From Escherichia phage JLBYU22: a DNA stretch of 64,000 nucleotides. The stretch lies in the sequence record OK272484.1. One strand, given 5' to 3'. This document shows positions 34,738-40,229 of the stretch, piece after piece (position 1 is the first letter of the stretch; each line of letters opens with the position of its first letter). The notes under the pieces were generated by a model. It saw only the letters and a program-made list of their open reading frames with translations, did not search any database and was not told the origin of the DNA. The position numbers and the translations under genes were made by a program.

Positions 34738-37002
34738 TCATAATTTACAGGATGAACAATCTTCAGCTTTTGGAGTTTCTATTTCATAATCATCAGTACC
34801 AGAACCATCACGGGTATTATGATAATAGAAATTTTTTCCGCCAAAATACCAAAAATACAAAAGGTCATCAATCATTATTGACATTGGAACCTTTCCTTTT
34901 GGAAAAATCTGTGGGTCATAATATGTATTCGCCGAAGCTGATTGACAAACCCATTTCAGCATAATAGCTACCTGCGTAAGATAAGGTTTATTACCTTTCT
35001 TAGCTAATTTCCATGTATAATCATAGAGGTCTATGTTATGCTCAATATTGGGCACGACTTGATTAAAGGAGCCCTCTTTTGATTCTTTAACAGAGACTGG
35101 TCCACGTGGAGGCTCGATACCGTTTGTACTGTTAGAAACTTGGGAAGATGACTCACATGGCATAAGTGCTGATAATGTGCTATTACGGATGCCAAAGAGC
35201 TTAAGGTCTTCCCGCAGCGACGACCAGTCACAAACGTATTTTGGAGCTGCGATTTGGTCAATCTTTTTATTGTACCAGTCGATAGGTAATTCGCCTCGAG
35301 ACCAACGAGTGTCTGAATAATATTCGCAAGGTCCTTTTTCTTTGGCGAGCTTAATGGATGCTTTAATGAGTCCATACTGTAATCTCTCAAATAGTTCATG
35401 TGTTAAATCGTTAGCATCTTCATAAGAAGCAAAGTTACTTGCCAGCCAAGCTGCATAGTTAGTAACACCTACACCGAGGTTACGACGCTTTTTAGCTTTT
35501 TCTGCTTCAGGAACTGGATATCCTTGGTAATCCAAAAGATTATCAAGAGCACGAACTTGGACTTCTGCCAATTCATTAATTTTATCTTGGTCTTGCCAGT
35601 CAAAATTATCCAGTACGAATGCAGAGAGAGTACACAATCCAATTTCAGCATCAGGACTATTCACATCATTTGTTGGAATAGCAATTTCACAGCACAAGTT
35701 ACTCTGACGAATAGGTGCCTTTTCACGAATAAACGGAGTATAGTTATTCGTATTATCAATGAACTGCACATAAATCCTTGCTGTTCCTGAACGTTCAGTC
35801 ATGAGCAATTCAAATAGTTCACGGGCTTTAATACGCTTTTTACGAATATTAGGGTCTTTTTCTGCAGCTTCATACAATTCACGGAAACGGTCTTGGTCTT
35901 TAAAATAAGAATAATAAAGCTCGCCGCCCATTTCATGCGGACTGAACAAAGTAATGTAATCGTTCTTTCCGAATCGTTCCATCATCAAATCATTCAGCTG
36001 AACACCATAATCCATGTGACGAATGCGGTTTTCTTCTACGCCTTTGTTATTTTTCAAAACGAGAAGATTTTCAACTTCCAAATGCCAAATAGGATAATAA
36101 GCAGTAGCAGCGCCGCCACGAATTCCACCCTGTGAACATGATTTAACTGCAGTCTGAAAATGTTTCCAAAAAGGAATAACACCAGTATGACGTACTTCAC
36201 CCATGCCAATCTTAGAACCTTCGGCACGAATCATACCAACGTTAATACCAATTCCAGCGCGTTTAGAGATATATTCAACAATTGAAGCGGAAGCCTTATT
36301 GATAGACTTTAATGAATCACCTGCCTCAATAACAACGCATGAACTAAACTGTCGAGTCGGAGTACGACAACCAGCCATAATAGGAGTTGGCAATGAAATC
36401 TGTCGAGTAGATACTGCTTCATAAAAACGGATAACATGTTTTAATCTATCAACAGGTTCATCTTGATGCAGTGCCATTCCAATAGTCATAAATGCAAACT
36501 GCGGAGTTTCATAAATTTGACCGGTGGTTTTATCTTTGACTAGATATTTTTCTTTTAATTGCATCGCTCCGGAATAAGTAAATTCCATATCCCGCTCGTG
36601 CTTAATTTTTGATTCTAAAAATGTAATTTCTTCCGCAGAATATTTTGACAATAATTCAGAGTCATATTTCCCTTCATTTACGCAATAAGAAATATGGTCA
36701 ATAAATGAACGCGGTTCATACTGCCCGTAAACATGCTTACGAAGAGCAAACATTAAACAGCGTGCAGCTACATATTGATAATCAGGCTCTTCAACCGAAA
36801 TAGAATTCGCAGCAGCCTTAATGACAATAGTCTGAATATCATCAGTTGTCATTCCATCACGGAGATAAGATTTAATATTTTCATATAATTCATAAGGATC
36901 TACTGATGTTCCTTCAGCTGCCCAAGATAAAACTTTAATAATTTTTTGTGGGTCGAAGCTCTGAGAAACACCACTACTTTTGATAACATTAATTAATTGC
37001 AT
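34738..37002 (-). CDS. nrdA: Ribonucleotide reductase large subunit NrdA
   Basis: 754 aa, same as T4 NrdA. Confidence 0.95.
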   Translation of the reverse strand: MQLINVIKSSGVSQSFDPQKIIKVLSWAAEGTSVDPYELYENIKSYLRDGMTTDDIQTIVIKAAANSISVEEPDYQYVAARCLMFALRKHVYGQYEPRSFIDHISYCVNEGKYDSELLSKYSAEEITFLESKIKHERDMEFTYSGAMQLKEKYLVKDKTTGQIYETPQFAFMTIGMALHQDEPVDRLKHVIRFYEAVSTRQISLPTPIMAGCRTPTRQFSSCVVIEAGDSLKSINKASASIVEYISKRAGIGINVGMIRAEGSKIGMGEVRHTGVIPFWKHFQTAVKSCSQGGIRGGAATAYYPIWHLEVENLLVLKNNKGVEENRIRHMDYGVQLNDLMMERFGKNDYITLFSPHEMGGELYYSYFKDQDRFRELYEAAEKDPNIRKKRIKARELFELLMTERSGTARIYVQFIDNTNNYTPFIREKAPIRQSNLCCEIAIPTNDVNSPDAEIGLCTLSAFVLDNFDWQDQDKINELAEVQVRALDNLLDYQGYPVPEAEKAKKRRNLGVGVTNYAAWLASNFASYEDANDLTHELFERLQYGLIKASIKLAKEKGPCEYYSDTRWSRGELPIDWYNKKIDQIAAPKYVCDWSSLREDLKLFGIRNSTLSALMPCESSSQVSNSTNGIEPPRGPVSVKESKEGSFNQVVPNIEHNIDLYDYTWKLAKKGNKPYLTQVAIMLKWVCQSASANTYYDPQIFPKGKVPMSIMIDDLLYFWYFGGKNFYYHNTRDGSGTDDYEIETPKAEDCSSCKL

Positions 37003-37319
37003 AAGTCCTCAACTTGAAAATCGTCTTTAAACAATCGGTTAACTATATGAGCTATTATATCACCATGACACGGCTTTGGTTTACATGTGCATCCTAGCCT
37101 CATTCCACGTAAAGGCTCTAAATGTGCTTTAGTTATTTCTCCGGATTTAATTCGACGTATAAAATCTTTTTTGAATAATTCAATGGCAGCCTCCCGGCTG
37201 CCAGCATCTTTACCGACGTAATTTCCCCAAAATGTACCACGGTGAATATTAACATCAAAGTCGGATTTGTATTTATTCACTACCCGGCATAGACGGCCCG
37301 CGCTGGAATAATTCGTCAT
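36993..37319 (-). CDS. Hypothetical Cys/His-motif protein (position of T4 nrdA.1)
   Basis: 108 aa; motif [13 protein letters not shown] near C-terminus. Confidence 0.55.
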
Positions 37320-37536
37320 ATTGTTTTTCCGTTAATACAGTAATATCATAGTAACAGTCAGAAGAAGTTTTAACTGTGGAAATTTTATTATCAAAATACT
37401 CACGAGTCATTTTATGAGTATAGTATTTTTTACCATAAATGGTAATAGGCTGTTCTGGTCCTGGAACTTCTAACTCGCTTGGGTTAGGAAGTGTAAAAAG
37501 AACAACGCCAGAAGTATCTTTAAATCGTAAAATCAT
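37273..37536 (-). CDS. Hypothetical protein (position of T4 nrdA.2)
   Basis: 87-aa ORF coupled to td. Confidence 0.5.
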
Positions 37537-38393
37537 ATTGCCATTTTCCCTTTAATTGCTGGATGCGATTCATAATTTTCAAGGATAAAATCTTTCGGTT
37601 TCATGTATTCAGTTAACCAGTAAAGCTGTGTTTCGGTGTCACAATTTCCAAACTCTATAGGCCAATCAATTTTAAGTTCACATAGTTCTTTAGGCTCACG
37701 ACGTAAAATTTCTTTACATTGCTCAGTATGATTCATATAGATGTGAGTATTACCACCAGAAAATATCAAATCTCCTGGGATAAGATTACACATCTTAGCC
37801 ACAATATGCGTCAAGGCAGCGTACGAGGCAATGTTGAATGGCAATCCCAAGAAAACATCTACACTTCTTTGGTACCATTGTAAATCAAGATAACCATTAC
37901 GCACATTAAACTGATAGAACATATGACAGGGCGGTAATGCCATTTGATTGATTTCAGCTGGATTCCATGCTGAAACGATTTGACGTCGATCAGTTGGTAA
38001 TTTTTTAATACGATCAATAGTTTCAACTAATTGATCCACACCACCGAAATCACGCCATTGTTTACCGTATATAGGACCAAGTTCACCACTATGATATCCT
38101 AGGTCTTTAGCCTGGTTTTCATAGTTATCGTCCCAAATAGTTTTACCTTGAATAAGACTGCCATGAGTGCGAAGACGTAAATCATTAACATTGGTAGAAC
38201 CGGAAATAAACCATAGAAGCTCAGCAATGCATGCATTCCAGGCGAGCTTTTTAGTTGTTACTGCAGGAAAACCTTTGGTTAAATCCCAACGCAATTTAGT
38301 ACCGAACAAAGCAATTGTTCCTGTGCCTGTTCGGTCATCGGTTTCATAACCATTTTCAAAAATGTCTTTAATTAAATCTTGGTATTGTTTCAT
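37533..38393 (-). CDS. td: Thymidylate synthase (uninterrupted)
   Basis: 286 aa continuous; active-site PPCHMFYQF; no group I intron. Confidence 0.95.
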
Positions 38394-38437
38394 TTAGTAC
38401 CTTATATAAATTATAATACATTTTATGAAGCTAATAA

Positions 38438-38797
38438 TTAATACGGTTTAGCATCAAATTTTCTCTCAATTTCAGGCGTGAAATATAATTCTTTACCGCG
38501 TTTGGAAAAACGACCAATAATATGATAATTATTCTCATCAAACGTGATATTGCCGATATCCATAGCTTTCAACCAAATATCGATATTTCTGTCAAGCTTT
38601 ATATCAAAATTCCAATACGGAGAACTATTACCAAAAATACTGCAAGCGGATTCAGTGAAACAACTGCTATAAATTTTGTCTTTAGGAACTATTAATTGAT
38701 AGACGCCTTTAATAAACTGAGGACCTTGCCATTTTGGTTGTTTCGCGTCTTTTTCTAATAGAATAGGGTAATAATTAAAATTCATATTTTCCGCCAC
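38438..38797 (-). CDS. Hypothetical protein in an insertion between frd and td
   Basis: 119-aa ORF; frd and td overlap in T4. Confidence 0.6.
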   Translation of the reverse strand: MAENMNFNYYPILLEKDAKQPKWQGPQFIKGVYQLIVPKDKIYSSCFTESACSIFGNSSPYWNFDIKLDRNIDIWLKAMDIGNITFDENNYHIIGRFSKRGKELYFTPEIERKFDAKPY

Positions 38798-38805
38798 GTA
38801 TTATT

Positions 38806-39632
<827 letters not shown>

Positions 39633-39643
39633 ATTATCTCCTA

Positions 39644-39976
39644 TTAAAAAGGATCAGGAATATATCCGCTAGCTTTAATCATTTTAATTAACGTTAGCAT
39701 TCCTTTATTAACCGCTAGTGAGATTTCATCAAAAACTTCATCACTAAAAAGTTCTAACACACCCTTCTGAACTTTTAATTTACAGCCAACAATTTCGTCA
39801 TCGCCTATAGTAAATTCATTACCACCAATTCCTCCGAAAAACTTAATTACACCAGTTAACTGTCTTCCACGAGAATATGGGTCGTGTGATAAAGTAATAT
39901 GAGTCACCCCGGGTACAGTTTTAAATTGGCAGCGAATATTTACTTGAGCAATTCCAGTTACATGAATGTCAGACAT
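39644..39976 (-). CDS. Hypothetical protein (position of frd.2)
   Basis: 110-aa ORF. Confidence 0.55.
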   Translation of the reverse strand: MSDIHVTGIAQVNIRCQFKTVPGVTHITLSHDPYSRGRQLTGVIKFFGGIGGNEFTIGDDEIVGCKLKVQKGVLELFSDEVFDEISLAVNKGMLTLIKMIKASGYIPDPF

Positions 39977-39986
39977 AATATTTTCC

Positions 39987-40229
39987 TCAAACAGACTTTT
40001 TCACAATTTTCCAATCAGCTTTAAACTGCTCGACGTCAGAATGGTAAATCCAAAATCCTGCGCTTTCTCCGTCTTCATAAAGAGGACATCCATCGCATTC
40101 ATCTTCCCATCCCATATCACGTAAAAGATGTTCAGCTTTTTCAACAAGTTCAGAATCTTTACCGATGATATTAAAATACCATTTACCTCTAACTTCCGAA
40201 TCTTTGATGCTCTGACGTTGTAATCTCAT
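39987..40229 (-). CDS. Hypothetical protein (position of frd.3)
   Basis: 80-aa ORF with early promoter upstream. Confidence 0.5.
   Translation of the reverse strand: MRLQRQSIKDSEVRGKWYFNIIGKDSELVEKAEHLLRDMGWEDECDGCPLYEDGESAGFWIYHSDVEQFKADWKIVKKSV

Follow-up and report, generated by a model that had tools for sequence, protein, structure and literature searches.

The frd–td interval of Escherichia phage JLBYU22 carries td.1, very likely a long-resident gene of the Tevenvirinae whose absence from T4 is best read as a deletion

The 412 base pairs (bp) that lie between frd and td at positions 38394..38805 in a 64,000-nucleotide (nt) stretch of Escherichia phage JLBYU22 (OK272484.1; “the window” refers to this whole stretch) very likely carry td.1, a genuine protein-coding gene that has long been resident between frd and td in the Tevenvirinae. 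The gene is already known, and its function is uncharacterised. The segment had been described in the initial annotation as an insertion, a claim that does not stand, since the same open reading frame (ORF) occupies the same site in T2, T6, RB3, RB14, RB51 and approximately 360 records, with homologues in at least 10 other genera; the apparent insertion is an artefact of taking T4 as the reference. With regard to what the gene does, we lean, by a modest degree, toward an overall reading in which td.1 is an old resident of the frd–td site that encodes a non-catalytic binding accessory. The three genes, all on the minus strand, are as follows.

38806..39387, minus strand: frd, dihydrofolate reductase, 193 amino acids (aa), the upstream neighbour; from the ORF list, with the frd label in matching records and a phmmer match to Frd at all related loci.
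38438..38797, minus strand: the td.1 ORF, PHROG 1928, 119 aa from the GTG at 38797, with its stop codon at 38438-38440.
37533..38393, minus strand: td, thymidylate synthase, 286 aa, intronless, the downstream neighbour; from the ORF list.

The ORF list agrees with the coordinates first reported for this locus, which place the end of frd at 38806 and the start of td at 38393, with a 119-aa ORF (counted from the GTG) and a 44-bp A/T-rich spacer between them. td.1 is the sole substantial ORF within the interval, and its product from the GTG reads MAENMNFNYYPILLEK... at the N-terminus. The ATG at 38785, which gives a product of 115 aa, is preceded by GGCGGA and is the start chosen in the T2H record and in most other annotations, and it is likely to be the real start of td.1 rather than the GTG at 38797. 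Measured from this ATG, the gap between td.1 and frd is 20 nt, while 44 nt separate td.1 from td at the other end.

The ORF has been annotated before, as td.1 in T2H (ABI48932.1, AY262132.2) and as RB32ORF229c in RB14, RB32 and RB51, and Shigella phage Sf22 encodes an identical 115-aa protein, gp131. These are the same gene, with 98-100% protein identity (98% between the window protein and T2H Td.1), the same site between frd and td and a spacer of 44-45 nt, and the choice of start alone differs (119 aa from the GTG vs. 115 aa from the ATG in most records). All of these public records label the product as hypothetical. It matches phrog_1928 (E=4.3e-35, residues 8-115), a group described as of “unknown function”.

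That td.1 is under strong purifying selection is clear from pairwise comparisons over a range of divergence. Between the window and T2H there are 15 synonymous differences and 1 non-synonymous difference, which corresponds to a ratio of non-synonymous to synonymous substitution rates (dN/dS) of 0.012; the ratio is 0.04-0.05 against Mosigvirus PHB12 and 0.13-0.16 against two metagenomic homologues with 62-65% identity.

The gene is also widely distributed. A megablast search with the interval found 354 phage records with at least 80% coverage, and tblastn with td.1 found 579 phage records, 362 of them at 90% identity or more and 217 at less than 60% in other genera. Carriers include T2, T6, RB3, RB14 and RB51, as well as Mosigvirus PHB12 at 92% identity. 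The ORF is thus shared by standard T-even references, and it is T4, together with a small T4-like group, that is without it. At all of the loci examined (more than 30, in at least 10 other genera, among them Kanagawavirus, Jiaodavirus, Gelderlandvirus, Moonvirus, Winklervirus, Kagamiyamavirus and Mosigvirus, along with T4-like phages of Proteus, Morganella and Providencia), members of the td.1 family lie between frd and td on the same strand.

Most related phages of other genera carry not one but two tandem copies, which we denote X and Y, both assigned to PHROG 1928 and paralogous to each other (hhalign probability 99.4%, E=3e-21). Some phages have in addition a third small gene, Z, which is unrelated (68-69 aa, phrog_9550) and stands just before td. 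The JLBYU22 window has X alone, that is td.1, and no paralogue of it was found elsewhere in the 64 kb. In the other genera the first copy begins at the end of frd or inside it; in Kanagawa-, Jiaoda-, Moon-, Winkler-, Kagamiyama- and Gelderlandviruses X starts before frd has ended. The X and Y proteins of other Tevenvirinae (PEi20 ORF-253/252, Moon 254/253, CHI14, EcS1 ORF255/254, Mineola 238) belong to the same family as Td.1 and share with it the motifs QKKW, HGIY and GRFxKxGxxxxF in addition to the location, but differ from it in sequence (26-47% identity), and Y has an insertion of about 20 residues (PTIEQYKRNP).

Relative to the window phage, identity is 27-62% for X, 45-60% for Frd and 71-82% for Td. 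The divergence of X is therefore similar in order to that of Frd, which fits vertical descent with the operon, and in one metagenomic relative X is better conserved than Frd (62% vs. 49%). When 1.84 billion cluster representatives were searched exhaustively with a profile, 52 matched, and the genuine ones are all phage proteins of 95-148 aa; the long matches were rejected as repeat artefacts (SprB and ricin). A scan of bacterial genomes with one peptide pattern found no td.1 relative.

The contrast with T4 that was first remarked upon is itself real: the alignment with T4 (NC_000866) confirms that its frd and td share an ATGA overlap, with nothing intervening. Within Tequatrovirus the slot between frd and td is in fact polymorphic, with three states (td.1, Z or nothing), and the Tequatroviruses of the Z-only type are without td.1. 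The frequencies below were estimated from an evenly spaced sample of 60 rows out of 514 records.

td.1 present: about 40 of the 60 sampled rows; this window, T2, T6 and RB3/14/51.
Slot empty: 5 of the 60 rows (about 8%); T4 isolates, RB55, RB59, vB_EcoM_112, HY03, G28, JEP6 and SG1.

The flanking genes of the T4 pair are those of JLBYU22, at 94-97% nucleotide identity, but the 416 bp between two direct repeats are absent from T4 and the ATGA overlap is found instead. The repeats delimit the missing segment on either side.

38798..38812, minus strand: direct-repeat copy 1, TAAATGAAATAATAC (coding strand), spanning the frd stop codon, at the left end of the segment missing from T4.
38382..38396, minus strand: direct-repeat copy 2, TAAATGAAACAATAC, spanning the td start codon, at the right end of that segment.

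The two copies of this 15-nt repeat, TAAATGAAAYAATAC, are identical at 14 of 15 positions with a start-to-start spacing of 416, and the junction sequence in T4 is the exact product of recombination within the repeat. The frd/td overlap of T4 is best read as a derived minority state that arose as the by-product of a 416-bp microhomology deletion, and it is the distribution across genera that decides for a deletion rather than an insertion.

We also considered a link between the loss of td.1 and the group I intron of td, through co-conversion by I-TevI. Every T4-type junction without td.1 that was inspected also had the td intron. The intron with I-TevI is found in 197 phage records, including T6 and RB3, and is present both with and without td.1; since td.1-bearing T6, RB3, PST and IME340 have it too, the connection was rejected as a rule, and the loss of td.1 and the intron appear to be independent.

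The other side of frd differs from T4 as well. Between frd.1 and frd the window has an 81-aa ORF (39387..39632, minus strand) for which Pfam gave no match, as well as a 110-aa DUF7247 protein (39644..39976, minus strand), both absent from T4; frd.1 itself (DUF5417) is at 39987..40229, and in T4 the gap between frd.1 and frd is merely 72 nt. As T4 is without these two ORFs, it is the more compact on either side of frd when set against JLBYU22 and other genera. Beyond td, nrdA.1 (DUF4326, 108 aa; 36993..37319, minus strand) overlaps the start of nrdA by 10 nt, and nrdA.2 (DUF5496, 87 aa; 37273..37536, minus strand) overlaps nrdA.1 by 47 nt in a different frame, as is likewise the case in T4 and T2H.

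Two features lie between td.1 and td.

38394..38437, minus strand: A/T-rich spacer, 44 nt with 7 G/C (84% A+T), compared in an alignment of 8 Tequatrovirus sequences.
38408..38431, minus strand: promoter-like element within the spacer, GCTTCA-N10-TATAAT (or N12-TAATTT), from a pattern search.

In the 8 aligned sequences the spacer (44-45 nt) is invariant save for a 1-nt indel, next to a td.1 gene whose synonymous divergence (dS) is 0.2-0.3. The MotA-box middle promoters of T4 have the consensus TGCTTtA, followed by 11-13 nt and then TAnnnT. The spacer element resembles this arrangement, and a putative td-proximal promoter that T4 does not have is plausible from the sequence; the pattern occurs 20 times in the window vs. 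9.2 expected. Mosigvirus PHB12 has a spacer of 15 nt without the promoter-like element, and T4 has no spacer. A generic scan for sigma-70 promoters and terminators gave 8 vs. 10.4 expected and was uninformative.

The Td.1 protein has a mass of 13.7 kDa and a pI of 8.5, with Phe, Trp and Tyr making up 17% of its residues. As first reported, the ORF has no recognisable domain, and searches against Pfam (E up to 10 with the window protein), NCBIfam, PADLOC and PDB sequence profiles returned no significant match to it; PADLOC gave one stray weak match among 18 relatives, and scanning all 47 aligned family sequences at lax thresholds (E up to 5) gave no recurrent nuclease family. AlphaFold2 modelled Td.1 with a predicted local distance difference test (pLDDT) of 79.5 and a predicted template modelling score (pTM) of 0.76 from 29 sequences, rising to 92.3 and 0.84 from 47 sequences. 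Both models have the same order of elements, namely strands at 6-12, 27-34 and 62-64, a helix at 68-77, a strand at 80-82 and a long hairpin at 86-96/99-104, and on this basis Td.1 would be a soluble, compact, beta-rich domain with one helix and the strand-helix order of an OB fold. In the 47-sequence alignment W19, G27, Y29, G91, F93, K95, G97 and F102 are invariant or nearly so, R92, Q16 and L9 are kept in most sequences, and no Asp, Glu or His is invariant; the window protein carries all of the core residues (W19, G27, Y29, G91-R-F-x-K-x-G97 and F102).

Several records give td.1 a functional label: “putative homing endonuclease” in BASEL records MZ501046, MZ501065, MZ501066 and MZ501089, “putative dihydrofolate reductase” or “dihydrofolate reductase” in ADUt, Kelasse, JLBYU31, HMD-9 and ESCO58, and “putative glucose-1-phosphate adenylyltransferase” in SF2-1, while Aplg8 does not annotate the ORF at all. 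Domain searches back none of these labels. We rejected a dihydrofolate reductase (DHFR) identity because Pfam gave no DHFR_1 (PF00186) match, and the label was apparently carried over from the adjoining frd.

The absence of conserved residues of catalytic type, and the conservation of aromatic, basic and glycine residues on a predicted OB-like scaffold, suggest a binder rather than an enzyme. OB-fold nucleic-acid-binding domains (RPA, SSB, S1/cold-shock, HIN, Teb1/CST) were among the known systems considered for comparison, and the conserved aromatic and basic residues hint that Td.1 might bind ssDNA, RNA or oligosaccharide on a beta2-beta3/L12/L45 face. In the mechanism we favour, which is the most likely of several, Td.1 would bind nucleic acid, a nucleotide-like ligand or a partner protein without carrying out catalysis. 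td.1 is encoded in the early/middle frd-td-nrd operon, and the protein may be produced in the early or middle period alongside Frd, Td and NrdAB; in most other genera the gene begins before frd has ended, which suggests that its product is synthesised in a manner coupled to Frd, and the 44-nt spacer would probably supply a middle-type promoter for td. Td.1 would then assist the nucleotide-synthesis and replication module without being essential to it, and td.1 is indeed dispensable in T4.

Some considerations weigh against this picture of an old resident with a binding role. Since T4 thrives without td.1, any role in nucleotide metabolism is non-essential in the laboratory. The gene order beside frd may stem from inheritance of the operon rather than from a functional link. 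The literature searched makes no mention of td.1, and the sole paper that cites the T2H accession concerns nrdB. Finally, a 15-bp target duplication produced by an insertion could leave the same footprint as the proposed deletion, and it is distribution alone that favours the latter.

Other functions were weighed against that of a binding accessory. One alternative, which takes up the initial annotation's suggestion of accessory or anti-defence cargo, is that Td.1 serves in anti-defence or host takeover. It would be made early, as a small protein that binds and inactivates a component of the host's immune or housekeeping protein machinery or that ties up a nucleotide signal, and its location in a nucleotide-metabolism operon would be incidental. 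This seems unlikely to us. Several observations favour it: td.1 is dispensable, with T4 and its relatives doing without it, the slot is polymorphic in Tequatrovirus (X, Z or nothing), the protein, confined to phages, is small and non-enzymatic and has no domain that is known, and the adjoining region is variable too (DUF7247 and the 81-aa ORF being here and not in T4). However, the very strong purifying selection and a site beside frd that is fixed in at least 10 genera with different hosts are less typical of arms-race cargo. The overlap of the td.1 start with the frd end in other genera also argues against it, as do the lack of similarity to any characterised protein and the fact that no td.1 phenotype is reported in the literature searched.

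A closer connection to its neighbours would make Td.1 a dedicated partner of Frd and/or Td, either an adaptor that tethers these enzymes or joins them to the complex synthesising deoxynucleoside triphosphates (dNTPs), or a regulator that binds td or frd mRNA. The invariable position between frd and td, the overlapping starts in the six genera named above, the one metagenomic relative in which X outstrips Frd in conservation, and the OB-like predicted fold with its conserved aromatic and basic residues are all consistent with such a role. We nonetheless consider it rather improbable, as the Frd and Td of T4 are functional without td.1, the Z-only Tequatroviruses also manage without it, and synteny alone is weak evidence in phage operons.

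We regard it as very improbable that Td.1 is, or is left over from, a free-standing homing endonuclease. Such an origin would explain presence and absence between conserved genes in a genome that has many seg and mob genes, and it has in its favour the label in the four BASEL records and the nearby td intron with I-TevI. Across the 47 family sequences, however, there is no GIY-YIG, HNH, LAGLIDADG or PD-(D/E)xK match (E up to 5-10), no Asp, Glu or His is invariant, and 115 aa is too short to accommodate both a nuclease and a DNA-binding domain. The family is not sporadic either, occurring at the same site in at least 10 genera with a divergence comparable to that of frd, and td.1 is found with and without the td intron. 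We therefore disfavour this reading on the grounds of the missing nuclease motif, the stable position and the independence from the intron.

That td.1 is a chance reading frame or a non-functional leftover in an intergenic spacer, as might be supposed from its absence from T4 without known consequence and from records such as Aplg8 that leave it unannotated, is scarcely credible and is refuted by the excess of synonymous over non-synonymous change against T2H (15 vs. 1), the intact frame across approximately 360 records, homologues and a paralogue detectable down to 26% identity, and a confident AlphaFold2 model (pLDDT 92.3).

There is no evidence in this analysis that td.1 does anything unusual. 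The td.1 family can be described as small, confined to phages, strongly conserved and confidently modelled, with no relative that has been characterised and with DHFR and thymidylate synthase as its constant neighbours. A more far-reaching outcome, to which we attach a small probability, is that the X/Y family is an unrecognised and structurally distinct binding module for the folate-thymidylate step of the phage, or else a broadly conserved new anti-defence protein. Such a module could, for instance, act as a subunit coupling Frd to Td or connecting the two with the dNTP complex associated with replication, or it could regulate td expression, and if this were true, the loss of td.1 in T4 would have hidden a folate-thymidylate binding module from sixty years of T4 genetics.

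The useful outcomes of the work are the corrected polarity of the polymorphism, the picture of an X-Y-Z cassette between frd and td, and a confident model of an orphan family. They also indicate that T4 is a poor reference at frd–td, where the textbook overlap is a minority deletion allele, and it follows that what looks like an insertion in a comparison with T4 can be an ancestral gene.
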